From: a virus
Lineage: Duplodnaviria; Caudoviricetes
Length of the DNA: 64,000 nt
Virus record (IMG/VR): IMGVR_UViG_3300025306_000003
Span: 569 to 64,568 of that record
Reading direction: 5' to 3' (one strand)
Shown here: in pieces, positions 1,780-39,062 of the stretch
Layout of the letters: each line of letters opens with the position of its first letter
Position numbering within the stretch: position 1 is the stretch's first letter
The notes under the pieces: model-generated
The model's input: the letters and a program-made list of their open reading frames with translations, nothing else
The model's database searches: none
What the model was told of the DNA's origin: nothing
Program-made: the position numbers and the translations under genes

Positions 1780-2000
1780 TCCTCCAAGTCTTTAGGGTCA
1801 ATGCCATTTTCGACAATCATCTGATTGTATAACGCGGCGTTATCCGCAATCAGTTCGTCATCGTCTTCGGGATCTACTTCCAAGGCAGCATGTTTCATAC
1901 GGGCTTCGCTGTGCTGCTTGAGCGTACCTTTCGACCCGCCAAAATACTTTCGCGCCTCTTTATCCAATTCTTTAAGACTCATTTCAACCCTTTCAACCAT
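1776..2000 (-). CDS. Hypothetical acidic protein
   Basis: Overlaps both neighbours in the minus-strand operon. Confidence 0.55.
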   Translation of the reverse strand: MVERVEMSLKELDKEARKYFGGSKGTLKQHSEARMKHAALEVDPEDDDELIADNAALYNQMIVENGIDPKDLED

Positions 2001-2959
2001 CCAGAAAAAACAATCGGATGGATGTAGCTGTTCAATGCCTTATCGCGACCGTTGTTCAAGTGCGTAGCGACAACATCTCCAATGTGATTGCGAGAGGCTT
2101 TGTATTCTTTCAACGTGGCCGGTTTGGGGAGACTCTTGATCATCTGCCGAGCTATCGTGGTCGCGCCCAATGTACGCCAGTTATGTGGAGTGAATCCATA
2201 CGAGTCCCCGTGCGTGAGGCTGCTGGAATATTTCAACACAGTCGCGTAGGAAACATCGCCGAAGATTCTGCCATTTGGTCCAGCAGCTTTTGCCCTCGAT
2301 ACGAGATCTTTTGCAAGTTTAGAATCATGTATCTGATACGAATTGGCAATCTTGTCTTTGCCGACAAACTTTGCAAATACCTTCCCACCCTTTTCAACGA
2401 TGTGCCTACCCTCAAGCGTGCGTGCGCCATAGATCGGGGGTTTCGTAGTTTCATCTGCCACGCGCATGAACGTGTGCGAGATTAAACGCATGATTGCAGC
2501 TTCCGGTTTGTTGCCTGTCATCTTGGCAGTCAATCTGTCCGCAACAGGTTCCAATTCAAGAATCTTTTCCCAGTGTTGTGCTCCACGTTCGGCAACTGCT
2601 TTGGGCAGGTAGATTGGTTGGAACTTGCCCTTCTCATTTACGCTGTGGACCACATGACCTTTGTCATCAGGCTTCGTGTTCACGTATGTACGCAGATACG
2701 CTTTTGCATTGGGAACCGTGACGCCCTCGTGCATCTTCAACCGTGCTTCGGTCAGCTTCTCGCGCAACATCCATAGCCCTTGACCCTTTGCGTTTTTCTT
2801 TGCTGCCCACTTATCGAGCTTCGCGATCCGACTGTCTGAGTGCTCCTGCACAGTGAATGTCTTACCCTTGGAAGATGTCTTCGAGTACGTCCTGATCTTC
2901 ACAGCCTCAAGGATTGCAAGCCTCAGCGCATCGGTGATCTCGTCTGCAAAAGTTCTCAT
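1979..2959 (-). CDS. DNA topoisomerase IB (bacterial/viral type) with an N-terminal leader
   Basis: Catalytic pentad visible: FMR(V), FVGK, HNWRT, LNN...NSY(IHP), plus YGARTL..RHI as in poxvirus/bacterial TopIB. Confidence 0.85.
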   Translation of the reverse strand: MRTFADEITDALRLAILEAVKIRTYSKTSSKGKTFTVQEHSDSRIAKLDKWAAKKNAKGQGLWMLREKLTEARLKMHEGVTVPNAKAYLRTYVNTKPDDKGHVVHSVNEKGKFQPIYLPKAVAERGAQHWEKILELEPVADRLTAKMTGNKPEAAIMRLISHTFMRVADETTKPPIYGARTLEGRHIVEKGGKVFAKFVGKDKIANSYQIHDSKLAKDLVSRAKAAGPNGRIFGDVSYATVLKYSSSLTHGDSYGFTPHNWRTLGATTIARQMIKSLPKPATLKEYKASRNHIGDVVATHLNNGRDKALNSYIHPIVFSGWLKGLK

Positions 2960-5663: not shown

Positions 5664-6049
5664 GGGCGCACATTCTGAACAGGCGCGAACTGGGCAAGAG
5701 TTGCCGACCTGTCATGGAGAGCTGCTGCAAACACGTCGATGCCGTCCTGATCGGTGAGTTCAAGATCATACAGACTCGTAGGCGCGTGAGTCGCGCTGGG
5801 AACTGTACTCGCTCCGACAACATAAGCGCCGCGTATCTGAGTCACGATGTCATAGGGAATTGAGTAATCGGTGAGCACCCCCGAAGCCCCGGCAGTCCAC
5901 TGCCATTCAACCACCCAGGTATTCCGATATGCAGCGACAGTGGGAGGGGTCACGGATCCCACTGCAAACACCAAACTCGTGAACGCAAGCACAGACATCA
6001 GCAACAGAACCGAACAGAATCTTTTCATGATCCCTCCTAAATTACACAA
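5660..6049 (-). CDS. Signal-peptide-bearing beta-rich protein (probable start at MKRF, ~6029)
   Basis: MKRFCSVLLLMSVLAFTSLVFA signal peptide after an AGGAGG RBS. Confidence 0.6.
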   Translation of the reverse strand: MCNLGGIMKRFCSVLLLMSVLAFTSLVFAVGSVTPPTVAAYRNTWVVEWQWTAGASGVLTDYSIPYDIVTQIRGAYVVGASTVPSATHAPTSLYDLELTDQDGIDVFAAALHDRSATLAQFAPVQNVRP

Positions 6050-6100
6050 CGATCTTACAGCGATAGTAGTTGCGATGAGAAGCGATTCGTAACCCTAATC

Positions 6101-6187
6101 TTACTTCTTGCCGTACTTGAGGTAAGCCCAGATTCCGACACCGACACCAACGAGAAAACTGAGTACTGCGGTCAATACGTATTCCAT
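6101..6187 (-). CDS. 28-aa single-TM microprotein MEYVLTAVLSFLVGVGVGIWAYLKYGKK
   Basis: Manual translation; AAGGAGG RBS; below the ORF-track size cutoff. Confidence 0.7.
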   Translation of the reverse strand: MEYVLTAVLSFLVGVGVGIWAYLKYGKK

Positions 6188-6199
6188 GATCAATCCTCC

Positions 6200-6292
6200 T
6201 TAGAAATGAACGCCCCTAAAGAACCACACAAGCACCGCGATTGCCAGAGCAGCTATCACAAGTGCGCCAATTGCAAGACCGCTCCAGAACAT
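6200..6292 (-). CDS. 30-aa single-TM microprotein MFWSGLAIGALVIAALAIAVLVWFFRGVHF
   Basis: Manual translation; GAGGAGG RBS immediately after the terL stop. Confidence 0.7.
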   Translation of the reverse strand: MFWSGLAIGALVIAALAIAVLVWFFRGVHF

Positions 6293-6301
6293 ACCGCCTC
6301 C

Positions 6302-7942
6302 TCAGAACGCAAACGCTTTCTTTGAGCGCTCAAACGCGAGGATGGCTCCACAAGTCGCATCGGGGCCATCATCGTGTGAGTCGAAAGGAAAATTATCCCA
6401 CTGATTGTAATACGTAGTGCTGAGATGGCTGGCAAAGAAAGTGCGAGTCTTAATGACGGGTTCCAAATTATAAATCCGTTGGATCTTATTGGCAGTCTGC
6501 GTAAAGGTTCTAAGCGGCACTGTGATATTACGTTCTTTGGCGATCTTCTTGAGGTATGGAAGCAAAACACCGAAGCCGCCGTTGTCCTCGTAGTACAATG
6601 TCTTGATCGGATATGCCTGTACCAACCGCAATGCCTCTTCGCACTGCAATTCAACACGCGCCTGATTCAACCAAACATGCAGTACCCAATAAAAATTGTG
6701 CGTCAAGCTCTCCTTGGCGATGACATAATCTTTTCCATCTTTGTTTTTACCCATAAGTTCCCTACCCTGAAGGGTAATCGACTTACAAGCAACGACTGCG
6801 ATACAAGCGTAATCCGCAGCCTGAAAGTTGGATTGCTTTGGATCGCTTGGATCCCAGTACGCGATGACTCGGTAAGAATCGTCCATCTCGGCGATGAATT
6901 CCTGTGCATCGAACTTCTGAAACTTGACAGAATCGTAAACAAGTTCTTCGTCGGAAGCCTGCTTGTTCATGTACTCCAACGAGTACGCCCTGGCTCCGAT
7001 CTCTTCCCGTCTCTGATGCAGCTTCTCAAGCGGCCATCTCTCAGGCCACAAGGCTGATCCGTCTGTCTTCTTATTTCCAATCGGCCACTGTTCGTCGTGC
7101 TCATCTTGAGGAATGTTCTCCGCCCTGTAGAGTTTCCCATCCCAGGACTTTTGACGCATCAGAGTTCCGACCATGGACTCGGGGTTCAAGAAATTTCCGA
7201 TCACGAAAATGTCGCCTGGACTGGCAATCAAATTAACAAGGGTCGTTCTGAAGCGGTTCAGGAACTTTGCACGCTGATAATCAGTGGCGACTGTATCTGT
7301 GTCTTGAGGATCATCGAAGACCATCGCATCCGGTCGCCACTTGCCCTCTTTCAATCCGCGCACGTGACTGCCCATTGTACGCGCTTCGACGATTGCGCCC
7401 GATGTCACTTTGATACGGCTATCGTTCCAACTGACAAATTGCCCTTTGAAATCCATCATGGGCGACAGATGAGGATAATCGTCCAAGAGAGCTTGATTGC
7501 CTATGCTGCGATCCAGCGTATTTTGAAGCGTAGAATAATGATTCCAGAATGCCCCACCGGATCCGCCGAACAAACAGATGTACCATTTATCCTGTCTGGC
7601 TAACCACCATAATGGCGCGGCGAAGAGCAGGAAGGTGGACTTACCGCTGTCCCTGGGCTCGCATCTGACAATGCGCTTGTCTGTTTTTGGGCTCTGAACG
7701 CTGTCAATAAGATCTTGGTGATGCTCGCCCATTGCGCAATCAAAGTGCGCAGACAAGTAATGATAGATAAATTCAATGAACCAACGCCGAGCTTTCTCTT
7801 TGGCGACGATGTGTGCAAGGCTGGCGCGTTCCTTTATAAGAAAGAACGGCTGCTTAGCCTGCATTATCGGCTTGGTGTCACTGATCTCCGCGATGAGAGC
7901 ACTTTTACGAATCATGAAAGCCTTATTTGTGGATACTGTCAA
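6302..7942 (-). CDS. terL: Terminase large subunit
   Basis: Walker A PRDSGKST, Walker B VFDD, RNase H-like nuclease WDPS ... YEDN ... HDDGPDA. Confidence 0.93.
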   Translation of the reverse strand: MTVSTNKAFMIRKSALIAEISDTKPIMQAKQPFFLIKERASLAHIVAKEKARRWFIEFIYHYLSAHFDCAMGEHHQDLIDSVQSPKTDKRIVRCEPRDSGKSTFLLFAAPLWWLARQDKWYICLFGGSGGAFWNHYSTLQNTLDRSIGNQALLDDYPHLSPMMDFKGQFVSWNDSRIKVTSGAIVEARTMGSHVRGLKEGKWRPDAMVFDDPQDTDTVATDYQRAKFLNRFRTTLVNLIASPGDIFVIGNFLNPESMVGTLMRQKSWDGKLYRAENIPQDEHDEQWPIGNKKTDGSALWPERWPLEKLHQRREEIGARAYSLEYMNKQASDEELVYDSVKFQKFDAQEFIAEMDDSYRVIAYWDPSDPKQSNFQAADYACIAVVACKSITLQGRELMGKNKDGKDYVIAKESLTHNFYWVLHVWLNQARVELQCEEALRLVQAYPIKTLYYEDNGGFGVLLPYLKKIAKERNITVPLRTFTQTANKIQRIYNLEPVIKTRTFFASHLSTTYYNQWDNFPFDSHDDGPDATCGAILAFERSKKAFAF

Positions 7943-29296: not shown

Positions 29297-29587
29297 TTAA
29301 GACCTCCAAGTCTTCTTTTGCCGCGAATGGAAAATCATGATACCCGCGTCGGAACTTGAGAGAAAACCTCCTCCTCGAACAGGAATTGAAAAGAACGTAT
29401 CTGGAATGCCGCACCTGACTACTTGCAACTTTCCAGTATCTGAATTGTAAGCTCTAGCTCTACGAATCATCGCGCCCGAGGGATACGTGATCTCTTCCGG
29501 TTCCAACCACGTACCCAAAATGTCGGAAGGCGCTTCGGTGCGCATACCAAAGTAGTTCGCAACACGCGGACGCGGCTCTTTCCTCAT
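29297..29587 (-). CDS. Hypothetical protein
   Basis: ATGA overlap with the polymerase stop. Confidence 0.55.
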   Translation of the reverse strand: MRKEPRPRVANYFGMRTEAPSDILGTWLEPEEITYPSGAMIRRARAYNSDTGKLQVVRCGIPDTFFSIPVRGGGFLSSSDAGIMIFHSRQKKTWRS

Positions 29588-32500
29588 ACAGCTTCCTCCT
29601 TTTCGAGACTACCCAATGCAATTCCGTATTTCATGTCGGCCTTGATGGGCACTTTGAGTTTCTTTCCCAACCACTTCAACGTATCTGGGTTGTTCATAAT
29701 GTTCTGAACGAATGCCATTTCCTTTTTGAGATATTTCTTCGGGATTTCAAGGTACACAGCGTCGTGCTGCTCCATAATGAATTTGTAATGGTGTGTCGGA
29801 TACGCCTCCAGTAACATCGCGATCTGCACAAGCAAAACGTCGTGCGCCGACGATTGAATCGGCGTATTGATCGCCTGATTCGCGCCATGCTTATCAATCA
29901 CATTGAGGTGTCTGCGTCTGCCAAACAAGTTTTCAACGTAACCATGTTTCTTAGCAAATGCAATCATCCCCCTTTGCCACTTCAGCAATTGTGGGAATCT
30001 TTGATAGTACCGTCTATGAAAATCCGCTACTTCTTGTGGAGACATAGAAAAATTAGAAATTTTCCTGCACAATTGATCATACAATCCATCAGCATCCAAA
30101 CCGTAGGCAGTTCCAAAGTTTACGGATTTTGCTACAGTACGTTGCCAATCTGCCAATTCAGCATCATCAGGCTTTTCACCAAACAAAAATTGACGGGTTT
30201 CCTCATGAAAATCAGCATCATCAATAAAAATCTGAAGCAGGGCTTTATCCTCAGACATCTCAGCCAGCACCCGCATTTCGATCTGGCTGCTGTCAAACTT
30301 GACAAGCACATGTCCGGGGGCTGCTACGAATTGGTCAAGCAATTCCTTTTTCTTTTTAATATTGTGCAACCGATACGAAGCGCGACCTGTATTGTGATTC
30401 ATAACAGCATTGGCAACAAAACCATGTGTTACTGGGACGGTCAAATCATAGACTGGAATAACAGGTCCAGGTTCTCTGTGCATCAACTTCACATAAAGAC
30501 CATCCTTTCTGAAATTGTGCTCTGACCAAGAGCGAGTATGGGGAATCTTCGCACGAAATACCTTAGCAATTCCCGCTTGTTTCTGACTCAAACACCCCAC
30601 CTCAGACAAGTAACGCAGGATTGAATGTCCGGTCACATCCAAGCTGTAATAATAAGGTGCCGTGGCATTTCCAGTCCGTCGAACTGGATGCTTGTACTCT
30701 GTGCGTTTGAAATGGCACCGCACCCCCAAGTTCCAAAGTACTTGCTGAACAATCTCCAATCGGAACTTGTCCAAAGAACGAAACCTGATTAGATACTGTA
30801 AGCATTTCCCATTACGCACAACACACCAGCTACTATCTAGCGAAACCCCACGAACGAATGCACACATCGCTGACTTGTCTCCCCCCAAGATCCACGCAGG
30901 CACGTGCTTCTCCGCCGCACCATTCAAAGGGAAATCCATCAACCATTTAGCAGTAACGTCCTTTCCGGTTATGTGTACGCTGCCATTGCTGGCATCCCAA
31001 GAAGTCTCCCGAGCGTATAAAACCTGAGAAATTGCATTTACACGTTTTAGAACATAAATATCTCTATTTGAAATGGACAAAGAGTAATGTCCCGAATTCT
31101 CCCGGTTTGTGATGTGCCCATCAGACAAAAACATACCCAATAATTCAGCTTCCTCACTAGAACAAGTAGAAACACTTGGGAAGAAATTTGCACCAAATCC
31201 AGTCTGGATGTAATCTGCAGATGTGAGATCGGCTGCCTCCTTCCAGCCCGTTTCTGTCAACAACGGGTGCTCCGGCGTACAGCACAAATGTAGTCCGCAC
31301 CCAAAAGTGAGATTCAACGTCGTGCGCCTCCGCGCAACATACGTATATGAAGTATTTCTAGGACCGTCTGGCGACAAAATCCCAATCCTGCGGGAAACAA
31401 ATCCCTCCTTATGATCACACAAGACATCTGCGAACGCGAGACCCTCGCTGGTCCAAATCAACGTATCTGCAGACACACAGTCGGTTCCGTGAAGAAACAA
31501 CGGAGCACGCGCACGGTCGTCCGCACCCACGATCTCCCAGATACCATCGACAAACGTACCTTTGTCTTTGCTTAGATCCTTGAAATCGGAGAACGCCTCC
31601 AATACAGGATTCTTCACATACTTATTGAGGATCGTGATGACTGGATCAGAAACAGACCAGCGCCCTGTAGGCGTTTTCATGTTTCCGATTTCCTGAATAC
31701 CTTCACGTGGGAGCTTTTTATGGAGCTTCAATCTATCGAATAATGCCGCACCCATCTGTGGACCCGAATTCACGTTGATGCTCGGATCCCCCACGGCCAA
31801 CCTAACCCTGCGTTCCAAATGACGAATACGCTTCTCCAAGTCTTTGGAAAGTTTCTTGGAGTAAGGCATATCAAAACCGATTCCGTTTTTCTCCATCGCT
31901 TCGTATGCACGTGAAACGAATGCGTACAATCTGCCGAGGCGCTGCTGATCTTCTGTCAGATGCGTTCTCTGCTGATCCGCAGCGATATGCGTTACGCACG
32001 CATCCAAACCATTATACTTGCAGAGAAGGTCTTCGGGCACTGAACTGAGGTGCGACATGAATTCAGAATACATCGCATTCGACTCGCGCTTGTACCCCTG
32101 AAGCTTTCTGCGATACTCCACAAACTCGTAATCATAGCCCCCCATCTTGGCGAATCGCGCCGCAACCATGTCCAAGTCATGAATCCCCCTACGTTCGTCC
32201 CACAAATAAGAACCATACATGGTGTCCCATGCATAATTCTCCACATCACAAACGAAAACGCCTTCAAGCATCCCACGATCATAGCCGTTGAAGTTCTGCC
32301 CAACCTTTGCGATCTTGGAGTCTGCCAAAATCTGCTGAAATTTTGCGTAGACCTTAGCGGTAATAAGCCGTCTCGGGACCACAAGCGCTTTGTAATCGTC
32401 ATCGAAGGTCATGGCGATACTCAAGATCTTTGCGCCTTCACCTTCAACGTCTATCGCAGTTTCGCCTTTCACCCAACCCAAAAGCGTCAAAGCCTCATGT

Positions 32501-33129
32501 TCGGATCTCGCCACAAACACCTTCGGATTTTTGGGGACGGGCTTGGTCAGAAGCTCTTGTGCCAACTGCAAATCGGAAATGAACTGATCAATTACAGTCG
32601 GGTCAAAGTTCCTGACACGCATCACGTAACTGGGATGCCAAGTCGGCACAACAAAAATCGATTTGTTTCTGTACCTAAAAATCGTTCCACGCATCTTGGC
32701 AATACCATCGCGATTAAGCAACGCCATACACGGCGTGTTGCCCAATGCGACGATGACCTTAGGCTGACACTTCGAGATTGTTTCCTCCAAGTATTTTGAG
32801 CAACAGTAAACTTCCTGATCGGTAGGCGCTCTATTTGCCTTTCCAAGAGTCGGCCGACACTTCGCGGCATTCGCAATCGACACCTGAAGCGGATCAATGC
32901 CAACAGCACGCATTGCAAGCCGCAACGTCTGTCCAGCTTTACCGATGAAAGGGACTCCCTGTGCAACTTCGTCCTCTCCAGGGGCTTCGCCGACGAAGAG
33001 CAATCCACCAGCACCAATATTTGGGAGGTATGGTCGAACTTGCCCCTCAAAATTCGCAGTTCTGTTGATATTTAGTGGACAAACATCGCAGCCCCTGAAG
33101 TTGGGATCGAACGCGCTCTTTTTTGCCAT
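29584..33129 (-). CDS. polA: Family A DNA polymerase with an N-terminal family-4-like uracil-DNA glycosylase domain, 3'-5' exonuclease and an intein
   Basis: UDG: CDVCPL, GEAPG, PFIG, KCRP, HPS. Exo: DVE, YD, YNGLD. Pol: DSSQIEMR, R..AKSVNFG..YG, QHD. Confidence 0.93.
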   Translation of the reverse strand: MAKKSAFDPNFRGCDVCPLNINRTANFEGQVRPYLPNIGAGGLLFVGEAPGEDEVAQGVPFIGKAGQTLRLAMRAVGIDPLQVSIANAAKCRPTLGKANRAPTDQEVYCCSKYLEETISKCQPKVIVALGNTPCMALLNRDGIAKMRGTIFRYRNKSIFVVPTWHPSYVMRVRNFDPTVIDQFISDLQLAQELLTKPVPKNPKVFVARSEHEALTLLGWVKGETAIDVEGEGAKILSIAMTFDDDYKALVVPRRLITAKVYAKFQQILADSKIAKVGQNFNGYDRGMLEGVFVCDVENYAWDTMYGSYLWDERRGIHDLDMVAARFAKMGGYDYEFVEYRRKLQGYKRESNAMYSEFMSHLSSVPEDLLCKYNGLDACVTHIAADQQRTHLTEDQQRLGRLYAFVSRAYEAMEKNGIGFDMPYSKKLSKDLEKRIRHLERRVRLAVGDPSINVNSGPQMGAALFDRLKLHKKLPREGIQEIGNMKTPTGRWSVSDPVITILNKYVKNPVLEAFSDFKDLSKDKGTFVDGIWEIVGADDRARAPLFLHGTDCVSADTLIWTSEGLAFADVLCDHKEGFVSRRIGILSPDGPRNTSYTYVARRRTTLNLTFGCGLHLCCTPEHPLLTETGWKEAADLTSADYIQTGFGANFFPSVSTCSSEEAELLGMFLSDGHITNRENSGHYSLSISNRDIYVLKRVNAISQVLYARETSWDASNGSVHITGKDVTAKWLMDFPLNGAAEKHVPAWILGGDKSAMCAFVRGVSLDSSWCVVRNGKCLQYLIRFRSLDKFRLEIVQQVLWNLGVRCHFKRTEYKHPVRRTGNATAPYYYSLDVTGHSILRYLSEVGCLSQKQAGIAKVFRAKIPHTRSWSEHNFRKDGLYVKLMHREPGPVIPVYDLTVPVTHGFVANAVMNHNTGRASYRLHNIKKKKELLDQFVAAPGHVLVKFDSSQIEMRVLAEMSEDKALLQIFIDDADFHEETRQFLFGEKPDDAELADWQRTVAKSVNFGTAYGLDADGLYDQLCRKISNFSMSPQEVADFHRRYYQRFPQLLKWQRGMIAFAKKHGYVENLFGRRRHLNVIDKHGANQAINTPIQSSAHDVLLVQIAMLLEAYPTHHYKFIMEQHDAVYLEIPKKYLKKEMAFVQNIMNNPDTLKWLGKKLKVPIKADMKYGIALGSLEKEEAV
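30391..31479 (-). mobile_element. Intein (363 aa) with a LAGLIDADG homing endonuclease
   Basis: HGTD|CVSADT...CTPEHP...LLGMFLSDG...VYDLTV...NHN|TGR; removal restores the GTxTGR polymerase motif. Confidence 0.93.
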
Positions 33130-33363
33130 GCTAACCCCTATACTTTCTCAAAACAAGTCTTTAATTGTCCCCGCCACGCTACTATCCGCTCACCGGATGT
33201 CCTCCGAGTTTGAGCGGCAAACGTGGCGGGGTTTCGTGGACGACTGCGGAATCGAACCGGCACATCCTTAGTAGAAGGGGTCACGTGTTGGGAAAGCACT
33301 GGCCTTGTCAGCCCAAACCGCACTATCCGACTGCGGCCCACCCCTGTCGCCCACGAAGATCAA

Positions 33364-33792
33364 TTACAAATACTGAGCGTACTGCTCATCGTTTCTGCCG
33401 CCGATGTTGACAGTCTCGTCACAAGACAGCTCCAGCAACTTGAGTTGCCGAGTCGCGTAATCAAGTTTGTGAGTCAAAAAATCAAGCTTGTTCTTGAACT
33501 CCTGCGCCGTACGGTCGCGCCTGAATTCGTGTGGAACCTCATCTTCAGGAATCTGAGTCTCCACACGCACGGAAAACAAACCACCACCTTGATGCATGAC
33601 CTCGACATTCTTGACACACAACGCGGTATCTGCGAGCATTGCAGTCGCAAACGCAACGAGGTCCACCGGAGATGTCTGAGAAGACAAACCGCTATATGCA
33701 TCACTCTGTGCCCTCACCTCAGCAAACGTGGCTTGGCACTTCTCGATGTACTCTTTGACTTTCCCGATTAAGACTTCGCGTTTTACTTTCAT
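33364..33792 (-). CDS. Hypothetical protein
   Basis: AAGGAG RBS. Confidence 0.6.
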   Translation of the reverse strand: MKVKREVLIGKVKEYIEKCQATFAEVRAQSDAYSGLSSQTSPVDLVAFATAMLADTALCVKNVEVMHQGGGLFSVRVETQIPEDEVPHEFRRDRTAQEFKNKLDFLTHKLDYATRQLKLLELSCDETVNIGGRNDEQYAQYL

Positions 33793-33858
33793 TTGGAATC
33801 TCCTTTTTTGAATTCACAAGTTATATACACACCAAGACTTTTTCGCCGTGCAGGACTC

Positions 33859-34395
33859 CTACTCCGTACCAACGAATTTCCACCTTCGAAACGTAATAAT
33901 ATTATGAATCGCCGAACAACAAACACCAAATTTACGAGAAAGAGATTTTAGTGTCTCGCCTCCCGAAGAATACAATTTACGAATTTGTATCACCTTGAAA
34001 GATGTTAACTTTGCATAGTGATGTAATTCCCCCGAAGGAGCGTTGCGCCGATTTTTATTGATACAATCTTGATTGTTAATTGCGAAGGTGCCTAGAAATA
34101 AATGTTTTGGATTCACACAAAGCGGAATATCACACTTATGAAGCACACAAAGCCCTTTTGGGATTTTGCCGTTGTGAAGCACCCAAGAAACTCTGTGTGC
34201 ACGAGTTGGTTTGCCAAATTGACCTCCGCTAAAGATGTTGCCATACCCCGATTTGAAAGTCCCCGCAGTCCACAGCCAACAACGAGTTCCCAAAATAGGA
34301 TGGATGGGGCCGTGCTTATTGACTTTTTTCCAAAAACGAACACCCACAGGAACTGGTGGGCGTCCGCGTCTTGAGATACAATTTTGAGCAACCAT
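33859..34395 (-). CDS. Free-standing HNH homing endonuclease with a C-terminal HTH
   Basis: CWLW...GYG...AHRVSW...VLHKCD.P.CVNPKHLFLGT...N. Confidence 0.9.
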   Translation of the reverse strand: MVAQNCISRRGRPPVPVGVRFWKKVNKHGPIHPILGTRCWLWTAGTFKSGYGNIFSGGQFGKPTRAHRVSWVLHNGKIPKGLCVLHKCDIPLCVNPKHLFLGTFAINNQDCINKNRRNAPSGELHHYAKLTSFKVIQIRKLYSSGGETLKSLSRKFGVCCSAIHNIITFRRWKFVGTE

Positions 34396-34470
34396 GCAGT
34401 CCTCAAAAAGAATGGCACGGCCCGTTCGGGACGTTCTTGCCCGACCGAACCATATGCCTGTTTGGAATTA

Positions 34471-34872
34471 TTAAACGAGGGTTGAAACTTCTTTTCGACG
34501 GCCCCTAGCGCGGAGCTTGAACTTTTCGCCATCAATTACATCGTAAACGGTAAAATCCCCATCCTCACGCCTGACAAGGAGCAAGTTTGGGAATGCTCCC
34601 GTCCTACCGAAAAGTTCAATCACCAAAAGAATACTGGGGTCGGTCAGCCCTGGCGTGAGAATGTAAACTGCACAACGCTCTAACAACGCCTTCCCATCAA
34701 GCTGGCGCTCAACAGCATCCACGGTCGCAACAATCTGGCGCTCCATGGGAGCACTGAAATCAATTCGAAGTCTTTGATGCACGTACAAAAAATTTTCGCC
34801 AAACTTTTCTTTTAGAAAGGCCGTTGATTGTTCGCTGGGAATATGTCCAAAGTTCAAAACCAAATTTTGCAT
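34471..34872 (-). CDS. Csx15-like protein (type III CRISPR-associated ring-nuclease family)
   Basis: LNFGH...IDFSAPMERQI...VDAV...TPGL....ILL.IELFGRTGAFP...R...F.V.DVID......ARGRR aligns end to end with the recalled Csx15 consensus (LNFSHP...PPGL...AELHGRMGYFP...EV.EI.....R..AR.RR). Confidence 0.7.
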   Translation of the reverse strand: MQNLVLNFGHIPSEQSTAFLKEKFGENFLYVHQRLRIDFSAPMERQIVATVDAVERQLDGKALLERCAVYILTPGLTDPSILLVIELFGRTGAFPNLLLVRREDGDFTVYDVIDGEKFKLRARGRRKEVSTLV

Positions 34873-34934
34873 ATCACCTCCTCAAAAGGGGATTCTAGTT
34901 GGTCAAGGTACTGCATGCAACCAATTCGAACCCC

Positions 34935-36551
34935 TTATATTGAGAAGAGATTGCTGAGAATGGTATCCTCTTTGTCTCCAGGAACGTGCATGACTTTGCC
35001 GAGCTTGCTCAATTCCTGTACACCATACGCCTCCTCATCTAAAGAATCACCGATGAACACAGGGAACACATCAAACTTCAAACGCTCCCTCTCGTTATTG
35101 AAATGCGCAAGCACAGGACCAGAAATTTGGCAGTCCCCATCCGAAATGAAAATGCAATCAGAGTCTTTTTGATTCTCCAGGTGCGAGAGATATTCCCGCA
35201 ACGGCGGATCAAAGCTTGTGCCCCCACCTGTGAAAGCCCCAAAAAAGATCTCCAAGTCTTTCACAGTTGGAGTCGTGCCTTTAGGAACGATCAGCTTTTT
35301 GCCGACCACGTAATCAAACAACACTGCCACGTAATCGCGCTTCTGCTTAACTGCGATGGACAACAACGCAATACCGACCGCCTTGGCCCACTGCTCACGG
35401 GAATACACATTTGAATTCAATGTGGGATTGCCCTCTGCATCCGTCGAATAGGACTCCTCGCCATTCGGGCACACCATTCCTGTCATAGAACCTGAGCTGT
35501 CTAACGCGACGAAGACTGGCCCCTGACCCTTTGAGTCGGTGCCTCTCAATTCATATTGAGTGAGCTTTGCGTCAAGAAAATCCTTGTAGAAAATGTCCTC
35601 CAAATCAGGGTCTTCCAGTTTGATAAACTCTTCGGGAACCACGTCTGCCAGAATATTTCCCAGCTCGATCCCCTCAACTTCAGTGCGAATGTATTCGACT
35701 TTCTCCGACTGCTTACGCTCTGCAATCGCGATCATCCTGCCAGCCAACCGCGCCAACTTGTGAAGATCAGGCATACTGTGAACCTTGTGCGCCAACTTCA
35801 TACGCTCTTGCAAGCTAACCTTTGTTTCCGTTCCAACACCTGTGCCCCACCCGAATGCTTCGGATAATTCCTGGTTGGCATCCACCTCCTCTTGAGCCTT
35901 CTGCAACTCCTTTCGAACGATCCTGCGGATCTTGCCAGCGTTGTTTTTGAGCGACTTTTGCAATTTCTTTTGTGCGACTTGCTTATCTTTGACCTTCTTC
36001 TCGGCCTCAGGCACGTCTGCAGGATCACCTTTATCGAGCAAATCGTCCAAGTCTTTCTGAATTGAATCGACTTTGTTTTGCCCATCGCGCACTTCTTTTG
36101 GCAGCTTCTTAAAGGCTTCTTCCACAGCGATCAATGCACCAACAGCGTTGATCTCATCGCCTCTGGAAAACGCCCTGAGGTGTTGATACTCAGGAAGGCC
36201 CATGACTGATTCGATCACCTGCGCGTTGGCGCTACGCGCTTCAGGAACTTCATCAAGTATTTTCGGAGCATACTTGTAGAAGATCCCGAAGCCGTCTGTC
36301 ATAAGATCCCGAAATGGCTGAGACTGCTTCCCCATCTGCGCCATCATATGTGGATGCATTTTGACAAGGGACGAAAACAATTCCTTATCCATTGTATCCA
36401 CATTGGTAGTGTACTTCGCGACACCCTCTCGGGCGTCCGTTCCAATCGGCACACCATCCTCGTCCACAAGTTCCTGCTCAGGGTCGTTCTGAGCAAGAAC
36501 CTGTTTCGGAGTCGGCGGGACCGGAGCAATCATCCGTCTGCGTCTTCGCAT
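34935..36551 (-). CDS. ViaA-like von Willebrand factor A domain protein
   Basis: MIDAS LDSSGSM, GGGTSF, ISDG; directly downstream of the MoxR ATPase. Confidence 0.88.
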   Translation of the reverse strand: MRRRRRMIAPVPPTPKQVLAQNDPEQELVDEDGVPIGTDAREGVAKYTTNVDTMDKELFSSLVKMHPHMMAQMGKQSQPFRDLMTDGFGIFYKYAPKILDEVPEARSANAQVIESVMGLPEYQHLRAFSRGDEINAVGALIAVEEAFKKLPKEVRDGQNKVDSIQKDLDDLLDKGDPADVPEAEKKVKDKQVAQKKLQKSLKNNAGKIRRIVRKELQKAQEEVDANQELSEAFGWGTGVGTETKVSLQERMKLAHKVHSMPDLHKLARLAGRMIAIAERKQSEKVEYIRTEVEGIELGNILADVVPEEFIKLEDPDLEDIFYKDFLDAKLTQYELRGTDSKGQGPVFVALDSSGSMTGMVCPNGEESYSTDAEGNPTLNSNVYSREQWAKAVGIALLSIAVKQKRDYVAVLFDYVVGKKLIVPKGTTPTVKDLEIFFGAFTGGGTSFDPPLREYLSHLENQKDSDCIFISDGDCQISGPVLAHFNNERERLKFDVFPVFIGDSLDEEAYGVQELSKLGKVMHVPGDKEDTILSNLFSI

Positions 36552-36563
36552 AAAACCCCCTAA

Positions 36564-38503
36564 CTAAAAGGAGAATCCAATACAGTCCTTAATAATATCA
36601 CGTTGCATCTTGAGAAGTTGCGCCTGAATATCTTCGATCTTGCGATCTTTACGAAGCTTGCCAGCGTCCGCAATGAGCTTTTTCAGCTTCTCATTGCTTT
36701 CTATCCCCACGTCGGACTTTTTCGAGTCCATCGCGTTTTTATGGACCTCGGAAGCTTTGTCCAAAATATCCAGTGCGAGTTGAATGTCGGGCGAGACCAT
36801 CTGCAAGATGATTCTGGACGAAACCTTGATGTCGGCAGGTTTCTCCCACAACACGTGCTGCAGAATCGAGAACTCCTCAGCAGTCACTTGATCCTTGCCA
36901 TTCAAGAACGCTTCCGCCTGCAGGACTTTCTTACTCTCACGCCAACGCCTAGGCGAAAACGTCAAACCTTCAGTTTTCAGCTTGCCACGAAGATCTCGGC
37001 ACAAAGACGGCACCTGAGAAGCGTCTACAGCATCGACTGCGACCCAAGCTTTTTCCAAGTCTTTCATTGGAATCATGCCAGGACAACCCTGGATCCTCAC
37101 TGTGGTCATCATCTTTTCGAAGTTCGAATCGTCGATGATGTCACCTACCGGATACCTGAGAATCAGCCTATCGTACAACGCGGCCAACTCCTGAGACTCT
37201 GGCAGTTCATTCGACGCCGCGAACATAGACACCAACGGGGTCTGCAAAATTTCATCGCCGTTGAAAAAGAGTCGCCGCTCGTCCAACAACGCCAATAACG
37301 AATTGAGTAAAGAACCTGTGGCTTTGAAACCTTTGTGTTAGCTTACGTTCGCACGTAAGAGCAGACTATATCTTCATCTTGATTCTGGCTTTCTCTTGCC
37401 AACGGATACGGGCACAACATCGTACACATCGCCCATGACTTTCGTGCCTACGCTCTGTCGTGTTGCAAATAATACAAGCATCATAATGAAACGCCCACCG
37501 ACCCGCATACTTACTTTTCAAAGCAGCACACAATTCCTGTCGATGACGCAACAAATGACACCCACGACAAAACCCCATCAACCTCTCAGGCGAATGTCCA
37601 GGAGTCAAACCCAAAGATTCGTAAGATCTCCCATCGCCATCCAGATGATGCACTACGGTAGCTTTCGCACCACAGTCAAAACATCTGCCCCAAGTCTTTT
37701 TGAAAATCTCAACTCGCAAAATTCCAAAATGCCGAAGTTCACGTTTGAGCTTTTCCTTTCGCCTGAAAGCCTTATCTAATCGCAGTACGGCATAACACTC
37801 CCGCGACCTTTCAATCAGGTGTTGACGGTGCTTCTGATAATACTTTTTGTAATAGTCGGGATCAGATGGTTTTCCGCCCATAGCGTTCTCCTTATGCTTT
37901 GAATAGCATAACAGAAAACACTAAGGATTTCAAGAGCAAGGCGTGTAGTCGTTGAGGGGCCAATCACGGCTTCCCTGCGGATTTTCTGCACCCAAACATT
38001 TTTACCGACATCCGGTGATAAGCCTCGGTAGTTTAGGATACTCAGACGTTCCCGCATACAGCCCTGTTACGTATCGCAAGTCACCCTGCGAGTGAGTCCG
38101 TAAAGTCAAACTCATCCAAGAACGCAAAATGCACAGAGGGGAACATGCCATCAATATTCCGACGATAGACATCCTTCTTGAGACCGGACAAGCGGATGGG
38201 ACCAAAGAGATCTTCGGGTTTGGTGAACTTGTTCACAAGGTGCTCGAAGTACGCAGAGTCCGCGAACGTCTCACAGACCTTTTCAACCAACAGGGATTTG
38301 GTCACGCCCTTCGGGCCAATCTGAAAGTGGTGCTTCTGTGCCAGCACCGCAACCATCGCGCCGTGCAGGACTTCGGTGCGCTCCACAAACTGATCATCCA
38401 AAGCACTCACAGCAGCATTGAAATGCGTGTACAGTTTGCCATTACCATTCGAAGACACATTGCGGACCTTGCGGACATGAGAGGAACTTTTTTTGCCTAT
38501 CAT
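36564..38503 (-). CDS. MoxR/RavA-like AAA+ ATPase, spliced (exon 1 38503-38109, exon 2 37329-36564; ~386 aa)
   Basis: GPKGVTKS Walker A, EDLFGP, FLDE|(F)FKA...LLN.LL..LDER, ASNELP, ALYDR, SPRRW. Confidence 0.88.
37330..38108 (-). ncRNA. Group I intron (~779 nt) in the MoxR gene
   Basis: Minus strand: P UGCGGGAA, Q AAUCCGCAG, R CUCAACGACUA, S AAGAUAUAGUC; P9 CUUACGU-GCGA-ACGUAAG; terminal G; P1 UGAGUU/GACUCA with a U.G pair at the splice site; splicing restores the frame. Confidence 0.9.
37366..37881 (-). CDS. Intron-encoded HNH homing endonuclease
   Basis: CFDC...VHHLDG...CRGCH plus a C-terminal Cys finger; lies between the R and S elements. Confidence 0.82.
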   Translation of the reverse strand: MGGKPSDPDYYKKYYQKHRQHLIERSRECYAVLRLDKAFRRKEKLKRELRHFGILRVEIFKKTWGRCFDCGAKATVVHHLDGDGRSYESLGLTPGHSPERLMGFCRGCHLLRHRQELCAALKSKYAGRWAFHYDACIICNTTERRHESHGRCVRCCARIRWQEKARIKMKI

Positions 38504-38639
38504 ATACTCTCCTAAGTTTAGGTTAAATGTTTCCAAGTCTTTTCTGGAGAGAGGTTCACGAAACCCCTTGAGTAAGGCACTCTAGGGTGTCGCCTTATTT
38601 AAGCGCCAAGCGCTGATTCGCGAACCTCTCACAACTCAA

Positions 38640-39062
38640 TTACTGAACTCTGCTGCTTGCGGGTTTCGCCTGAGTAAGATCTTTCTTTGAGACCTTCCGA
38701 CGGGATTTCTCAACAGTGACCCTATTACCCAAAGTCTCGAACACAAAAGAGGCATGCTTCACAAGCGCCTGTTCGACCAACTCATCCAAATTAGTCTCGT
38801 ACCCATTCTGGGACATCGACCGCAGTGCATCTTGCATAAGCAACGCCCCACAAGACGCCAAGCACAGAGTGTACATGATACCGTCCATAAACTTCCGATC
38901 ACTATCGGAGAGAGGCTGCAACGCTTCCTTACACGCATCCGCCAAGTTCGACAACTGCTGCCTATCGGCACCGTTAAGATGCGGAATAAGCAACAACATA
39001 ATATCATCCAGCTTCATACTACCTCCCCCGCAGCTTTGGGTTGACCTTCGTATAACCGCCAT
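38640..39062 (-). CDS. Hypothetical early protein (probable start at MKLDD)
   Basis: GGAGGT RBS. Confidence 0.55.
   Translation of the reverse strand: MAVIRRSTQSCGGGSMKLDDIMLLLIPHLNGADRQQLSNLADACKEALQPLSDSDRKFMDGIMYTLCLASCGALLMQDALRSMSQNGYETNLDELVEQALVKHASFVFETLGNRVTVEKSRRKVSKKDLTQAKPASSRVQ

Follow-up and report, generated by a model that had tools for sequence, protein, structure and literature searches.

Csx15 is a family of CRISPR-associated proteins that was characterised only in 2026. An earlier preprint had found no clear activity for it and suggested a function as a sponge (Hoikkala et al., bioRxiv 10.1101/2024.09.24.614671). The preprint of Chi et al. (bioRxiv 10.64898/2026.01.21.700848) subsequently described sponging of cyclic tetra-adenylate (cA4) together with slow cleavage by Csx15, and reported that CliCsx15 lifts, in E. 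coli, a plasmid immunity that depends on cA4. Its authors state that phage genomes were not seen to carry Csx15, and they doubt that it is used as an anti-CRISPR; sponging was described as a poor strategy against the large cyclic oligoadenylate (cOA) output of type III systems. Broad, filament-dependent ring-nuclease activity of Csx15 was then reported in the preprint of Klimavicius et al. (October 2026, bioRxiv 10.64898/2026.10.26.761840), which lists a single viral homologue from ClusteredNR and more than 20 from env_nr and IMG/VR, mostly in prophage regions. The name AcrIII-3 is proposed therein for viral Csx15 (vCsx15), whose role is predicted only, and the same account holds that the slow turnover of Csx15 would suit viruses badly. 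A search of the full-text literature returned the name AcrIII-3 from this preprint only. The cellular proteins of solved structure, CliCsx15 (PDB 9teu) and PfCsx15 (PDB 9tet), comprise one from a type III-A locus and one orphan, and 25% of the RefSeq genomes with Csx15 have no type III locus, so that the link of the family to type III systems is not a strict one.

Also comparable are the viral proteins AcrIII-1 and AcrIII-2. AcrIII-1 (DUF1874/STIV_B116-like, PF08960) shares with the phage protein described below the proposed role, viral removal of cA4, but is unrelated in fold and family, and PF08960 has no match in the protein or in the record that encodes it. vSAVED/AcrIII-2 (PDB 9r8s) is a viral ring nuclease with head-to-tail composite sites which, unlike the phage protein, is a 238-residue, two-subdomain SAVED protein and belongs to a different family.

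The present gene is found on IMG/VR record IMGVR_UViG_3300025306_000003, a linear sequence of 64,568 b with a CheckV completeness estimate of 80%. The window, meaning the whole 64,000-nucleotide stretch that was analysed, spans bases 569-64568 of this record, and all positions below are window positions. The record looks like an uncultured freshwater tailed phage, and appears to be a free phage genome, about 80% complete. Nearly all long open reading frames (ORFs) of the window are held by the minus strand. The features needed for the comparison are as follows.

2-1369, portal protein, named by family scan
1979-2959, minus strand, type IB topoisomerase-like protein (PF01028, E 1.9e-12), flanked by the portal and terminase genes
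6302-7942, large terminase (TerL), named by family scan
29584-33129, minus strand, DNA polymerase A of 1181 aa, with an N-terminal UDG domain and an intein
33364-33792, minus strand, ORF of 142 aa without a family hit
33859-34395, minus strand, free-standing HNH endonuclease of homing type
34471-34872, minus strand, Csx15-family gene, 133 aa plus stop
34877-34883, minus strand, Shine-Dalgarno-like GAGGAGG (reverse complement of cctcctc), 4 nt before the Csx15 ATG
34935-36551, vWA-like protein (phrog_24053)
36564-37295, minus strand, C-terminal half of a MoxR-type AAA+ ATPase
37366-37881, minus strand, ORF of 171 aa between the MoxR halves, without a family hit
38081-38536, minus strand, N-terminal half of the MoxR-type AAA+ ATPase

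Family scans further named SbcC- and SbcD-like nucleases, a UvsX-like recombinase, a single-stranded DNA-binding protein (SSB), a primase, a DnaB-like helicase, a second helicase, and tail genes including one for a tape-measure-like protein. The Csx15 gene thus sits inside the replication module, with the vWA-like gene on one side and the HNH endonuclease and polymerase A genes on the other. A preliminary description of this DNA, made from the sequence alone, had placed the gene in the early region; the position within the replication module holds, while early timing would be a reasonable reading of that position. Two neighbours have features of their own. The polymerase A (29584-33129, minus strand) combines an N-terminal uracil-DNA-glycosylase-superfamily domain with a 3'-5' exonuclease domain and carries its intein inside the polymerase domain, with a weak LAGLIDADG match. 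The MoxR ATPase is split in two (36564-38536, minus strand), the pieces covering positions 3-106 and 120-178 of bpMoxR and positions 33-157 and 171-376 of phrog_19600.

All family hits in the scanned ORFs are phage functions, many small ORFs lying outside the scan. In the 64.6-kb record, searches for Cas10 (models TIGR02578 and TIGR02577) and for CRISPR-like direct repeats gave nothing, the only repeats being four families of short coding repeats, and the earlier remark that cas genes and an array are lacking is thereby borne out. No Cas10 locus therefore accompanies the gene, an absence that is expected of a viral copy. The record likewise has no match to a tyrosine integrase or a resolvase, which sets it apart from the mostly prophage-borne vCsx15, and no tRNA was found in the window. 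Against 50,697 deposited phage records, neither tblastn of the Csx15-like protein nor megablast of the surrounding 11 kb gave a match, and the TerL and vWA proteins are less than 30% identical to any of these genomes.

The ORF (34471..34872, minus strand) has an ATG start and an intact frame, and its 133-aa product is a stand-alone, phage-encoded member of the Csx15 family. The equivalog model NF040560 of NCBIfam (CAS_Csx15) matches protein residues 4-126 over profile positions 1-125 of 125, with an E-value of 2.5e-11 and a score of 43.9 bits, the curated cut-off being 35. The resemblance to Csx15 along the whole length, which the preliminary description had noted by comparison with a consensus and proposed to check by a profile search, is hence confirmed at full length and above the curated cut-off. 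The PADLOC Csx15 model also matches (E 2.7e-7), and a six-frame search of the whole record returned this single Csx15 match, at 43.3 bits. Pfam-A and PHROGs contributed no families for the protein. Pairwise similarity to the solved members is low (phmmer to 9tet, E 0.0026), and a profile built from the phage protein and 11 relatives matches the Csx15 structures 9teu (E 7.2e-10) and 9tet (E 7.3e-9) as well as the Csx15 domain of CbCash (9ylu, E 4.1e-5). As with vCsx15/AcrIII-3, this is a stand-alone Csx15-fold protein on a viral metagenomic sequence, here within a viral genome, and it may already be among the viral sequences of Klimavicius et al. What it contributes is one more case and a sequence variant of a recently proposed kind of protein, and no new principle. 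The interest lies in its being a clean, full-length viral example without an integrase found on the record, in a phage context in which no lysogeny genes were found, and in its placement in a clade that lacks the second conserved histidine of the family. The protein also offers a test of whether Csx15 can serve a virus at all.

The predicted fold agrees with this assignment. An AlphaFold2 model computed from a 38-row alignment (mean pLDDT 93.3, pTM 0.85) has strands at residues 3-7, 28-32, 68-72, 96-103 and 106-113 and helices at 14-24, 43-57, 77-91 and 115-124. Their order is beta-alpha-beta-alpha-beta-alpha followed by a beta-hairpin and a C-terminal helix, the Rossmann-like arrangement of the Csx15 fold. 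The ESM Atlas model of the protein superimposes on clusters named 'CRISPR-associated protein Csx15' with TM scores of 0.80-0.86 over 121 residues, so that the structural hit to Csx15, whose absence would have spoken against the preliminary description, is present. A comparison with 48,161 chains of solved structures ranked the viral SAVED ring nuclease 9r8s first (Z 8.4, rmsd 3.1 Å, 111 residues aligned), ahead of the SAVED domains of Cap5, CHAT, TIR-SAVED and Cap4 and of CARF proteins, with Z-scores of 6-7.4. Only residues 116-235 of 9r8s, the C-terminal subdomain, are matched, at 10% identity, and the phage protein is a single domain without the two fused CARF-like subdomains of SAVED. These matches agree with the likeness of Csx15 to a SAVED subdomain that is put forward in the preprint of Klimavicius et al. 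A Foldseek search of the PDB gave nothing at E <= 0.001 and weak SAVED/CARF-type hits only. The Csx15 structures 9tet and 9teu appeared in the results of neither structural search, perhaps owing to the date of the libraries. A homo-oligomer prediction with four copies and four AMP, run without controls, scored 0.02 against a mark of 0.42, which speaks neither for nor against oligomerisation.

Two structural look-alikes of viral or phage origin were noted in passing. The best viral match of the model is the BFVD entry A0A1S5Y369, an uncharacterised protein of 123 aa from an uncultured archaeal virus (Foldseek E 2.8e-4, TM about 0.55), and the Atlas yielded the phage family Pam3_gp32 (PF23992; feature score 0.88, TM 0.55). 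Both are leads to further small viral proteins of Csx15/SAVED-like type.

Residues were related to the characterised proteins through HMMER alignments and a 7-residue tag offset that reproduces the published numbering (Pf S9/H11/H82; Cli H13/H90/Y113), while the mapping to HaCsx15 and CsCsx15 rests on a spacing of 4 and 3 and on the alignment to 9teu and 9tet. Conservation was counted in the 38-row alignment A3, which excludes P0013, P0022, P0026 and P0037 (a fragment and longer fusion proteins). The head-face histidine is kept as H10, corresponding to Pf H11, Cli H13 and, by position, H8 of the Ha/Cs proteins, and position 10 is His in 35 of 36 non-gap rows. The stacking aromatic is F107, equivalent to Cli Y113, CbCash F275 and Ha/Pf F106, with an aromatic in 37 of 38 rows. 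The basic triad of the tail face is K119, R123 and R126, with a spacing of 4 and 3, which correspond to Ha R118, R122 and R125 and to Pf R116, R120 and R123. Arg occupies positions 123 and 126 in 36 of 37 rows each, and position 119 is Arg in 26 and Lys in 11 of 37 rows, the phage protein having Lys at this first triad position. Hence, the phage protein resembles CliCsx15 and PfCsx15 in family, length class, head His, stacking aromatic and C-terminal basic triad, whereas these are cellular proteins and it is encoded by a phage. It differs from them further in reading NFGH, without the Ser insertion of NFSGH. HaCsx15 and CsCsx15 share with it the catalytic pair (H8 and R125/R126, here H10 and R126) and the pi-stacking arginine (R122/R123, here R123), whereas their R118/R119 is replaced by Lys119.

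The most conspicuous change concerns the motif ELHGR, which reads ELFGR in the phage protein, as the preliminary description had noticed. F88 aligns with the second conserved His, Pf H82 and Cli H90 of 9tet and 9teu. His is the commonest residue in this column (19 of 38 rows), followed by Phe (7), Ala (4), Ser (4) and Leu, Tyr, Gln and Met (1 each). The ELHGR His being common and not universal in the family, the protein is filed under Csx15 despite F88. CbCash has Gln at the aligned position and its Csx15 domain nevertheless binds cA4, so that this His is not required for binding.

Mutations described for the characterised proteins allow the consequences to be judged. According to the preprint of Klimavicius et al. 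(bioRxiv 10.64898/2026.10.26.761840), the HaCsx15 exchanges H8A and R125A abolish cleavage while cA4-induced assembly is kept, and R118A causes loss of binding, filaments and cleavage altogether. Chi et al. (bioRxiv 10.64898/2026.01.21.700848) report that cleavage is abolished in CliCsx15 H13A, and that H90A retains very low ring-nuclease activity and loses cA4-induced oligomerisation; PfCsx15, which has this His, sponges cA4 and does not cleave it. As F88 replaces the His needed in CliCsx15, stacking and cleavage could both be impaired. From the alignments, then, the phage protein keeps the catalytic pair of one group together with the ligand-stacking residues, and is without the stacking and cleavage His of the other group. 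A pair of the H8/R125 type kept alongside the loss of the second His amounts to a natural test of which residues serve cleavage and which serve sequestration.

On these grounds the protein probably depletes cA4 by sequestration, cleavage or both, keeping type III CRISPR effectors silent. Its ligand, oligomerisation, cleavage and anti-CRISPR role are inferred by homology to HaCsx15, CsCsx15, CliCsx15 and PfCsx15. In such a mechanism cA4, and possibly other cyclic oligonucleotides, would be removed from the infected cell. Dimers would take cA4 on their 'head' face, where H10 and F107 would stack on the adenines, and K119, R123 and R126 on the 'tail' face of the following dimer would clamp the phosphates. 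The resulting head-to-tail stack would sequester the ligand, with a possible cut at the composite H10/R126 site, and the cA4-activated effectors of a host type III CRISPR system would stay off during infection. With F88 in place of the CliCsx15 H90, tight binding and slow or weakened cleavage are expected, which would place the protein closer to a sponge than to a fast nuclease. A point against depletion of cA4 is K119, which stands in place of the Arg whose Ala mutant lost binding in HaCsx15. The preliminary description had read the gene as a candidate anti-type III CRISPR gene encoding a ring nuclease or cOA sponge. Both activities are described for cellular Csx15 in the two 2026 preprints, which supports that reading as a candidate, and a viral anti-CRISPR role is proposed independently in the later one (bioRxiv 10.64898/2026.10.26.761840).

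The same structural and biochemical evidence raises the question of another ligand. The best structural matches being SAVED domains, including those of the CBASS proteins Cap4 and Cap5, the real target might be CBASS or another cyclic-oligonucleotide signal (cA3, cAAG and others), with the protein serving as an anti-CBASS nuclease or sponge. CsCsx15 and HaCsx15 are indeed reported to cleave 3'3'3'-cAAG and 2'3'3'-cAAA as well as cA3-cA6, and a broad-spectrum viral use is raised in the same preprint (Klimavicius et al., bioRxiv 10.64898/2026.10.26.761840). Such a target is nonetheless rather improbable, given that the Csx15 family is described as strongly linked to Cas10 and weakly to CBASS, that adaptation to cA4 is ascribed to its symmetric dimer site, and that Cas10 matches are present in four of the five genomes holding the nearest cellular relatives of the phage protein.

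A role inside the phage itself was also considered, in which the protein would be a nucleotide sensor or regulator, for example together with the MoxR-vWA pair or in superinfection exclusion. The gene lies directly downstream of the vWA-like and MoxR ATPase genes, and a promoter and terminator scan of 33000-39000 gave counts no higher than in shuffled sequence, so that between Csx15 and these genes no such signal rises above chance; Csx15 domains are, moreover, the cA4 sensors of Cash effectors. Set against this, the phage protein consists of the Csx15 domain alone (133 aa), lacking any effector or DNA-binding part, and the phages with the most similar vWA proteins, Moorella phage MTATph1 and Bacillus phage 0305phi8-36, have no Csx15. 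From the latter result, obtained by tblastn over the 50,697 records, vWA/MoxR and Csx15 are not a conserved pair, and a sensor function is considered unlikely.

An exhaustive search for relatives of the protein among 1.84 billion representatives gave only 39 proteins at E <= 0.001, with 7 at E <= 1e-10. A word-indexed search recovered the exact protein in 5 contigs, the longest of 65,211 b, and two relatives of 55-57% identity. The 9 nearest clusters that were looked up are all on contigs shorter than 5 kb from JGI, ENA or Logan, none with an NCBI source. On L002 and L003, two contigs of the nearest relatives, the Csx15 gene is the only part in common with the window. Its neighbours there comprise a transposase of the IS3 type, a reverse transcriptase of the group II intron kind and a sequence that matches sigma-70 region 2 weakly and below the cut-off. 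Scans of IMG/VR with A2, P0006, P0008 and the vWA neighbour gave no relative, the phage's own record perhaps having been skipped, and the only relative found in IMG/VR is the P0021-like protein of the contig L016.

Cellular genomes were scanned by motif. Motifs of the Phe type gave no relative in 185,579 species genomes, and E[IL][HF]GR[TS]GxFP gave 12 cellular relatives, each of which has His and shares no more than 36% identity with the phage protein. This set is biased by the motif, and its Chloroflexota majority (9 of 12) is accordingly not evidence of the host. Cas10 is about 16 kb from Csx15 on an Anaerolineae chromosome and about 6 kb from it in a Fimbriiglobus metagenome-assembled genome, apparently on the same contig; the canonical cellular relatives are thus CRISPR-linked, as published. 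The further suggestion of the preliminary description, that the gene was captured, did not find backing: the scans brought up no cellular donor, identity to the nearest cellular sequences reaches 36% at most, and the GC content of the gene is 46.8% vs 49.0% for the phage.

A maximum-likelihood tree of 46 rows was rooted at its midpoint after P0005, P0020 and L008 (shorter than 110 aa) and L011 (a 57-aa fragment) had been dropped; a 'clade' here is accordingly one side of a starred branch. One such branch, which is well supported (96/88), splits the tree into groups of 14 and 32 rows. No row of the smaller group has His at position 88, the group being composed of the phage protein, relatives with Phe, Leu, Ala or Tyr, and a branch with Ser or Met. 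The larger group has 27 rows labelled His and includes all 11 cellular-genome sequences. These labels were assigned in the tree by regular expression, giving '?' for P0029 and 'I' for P0039 where A3 has H and A, respectively; the counts of His at position 88 given above are from A3. Of the seven Phe88 rows, six belong to a 9-row starred clade around the phage protein, the fragment P0005 being left out.

The clade without the ELHGR His has so far been met only in two viral records and on short contigs that may be viral or cellular, which hints at a virus-associated lineage. More tentatively, it might be a virus-adapted Csx15 lineage, retuned by loss of the central His of the tail face, although this remains a rather doubtful extension. 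Were it so, its members could be tight stoichiometric traps for cA4 or, alternatively, enzymes freed of the slow filament turnover that the literature deems unsuitable for viruses, and with the present protein such an anti-CRISPR would be seen for the first time in a phage that is apparently non-temperate.

The other viral record of this clade is L016, a 52-kb IMG/VR contig, in which a Csx15-like protein of 137 aa (6001-6414, plus strand), near-identical to P0021, has an ORF the size of a Dam-like methyltransferase upstream of its gene. The protein falls in the branch with Ser or Met and has N, S and F in the columns of H10, F88 and R123, and these substitutions make it look like a viral Csx15 that has been disarmed more completely. 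Longer proteins were also met with, in which the Csx15-like part occupies residues 135-254 of P0022 (327 aa), 108-216 of P0026 (246 aa) and 1-106 of P0037 (346 aa). Fusions are known from the literature, and these three are presumably further cases.

The gap between the vWA-like and polymerase genes is shared by Csx15, the HNH endonuclease (33859-34395) and the 142-aa ORF (33364-33792), and may be a small accessory islet. Since the gene adjoins a homing-type endonuclease and one conserved His has been lost, it might be supposed that Csx15 is a decaying or neutral passenger of a variable islet. This is very improbable in view of the full-length, intact frame and strong ribosome-binding site, the retention of residues that are near-invariant in the family, a GC content in keeping with that of the phage, and the finding of identical sequence in contigs of other studies. 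Phe88 itself, being shared within the clade of the phage protein, looks like the result of selection and not of decay.

Matching DNA was found in three studies, one of which may be the source, in runs whose label is freshwater or lake-water metagenome. A contig of the second study (X2 record 10, 33322-34898) holds the whole Csx15 gene with 0 differences, and a 209-b contig of the third (X4 record 21) covers 34400-34608, again with 0 differences; for X3 and X4 the uncovered parts of the 8-kb stretch carry no information. No RNA run was among those holding the DNA. Inside the HNH gene, at 34139-34332, short contig pieces from X1 and X2 match at less than 90% and run into unlike sequence; these partial matches are probably HNH genes of other elements.
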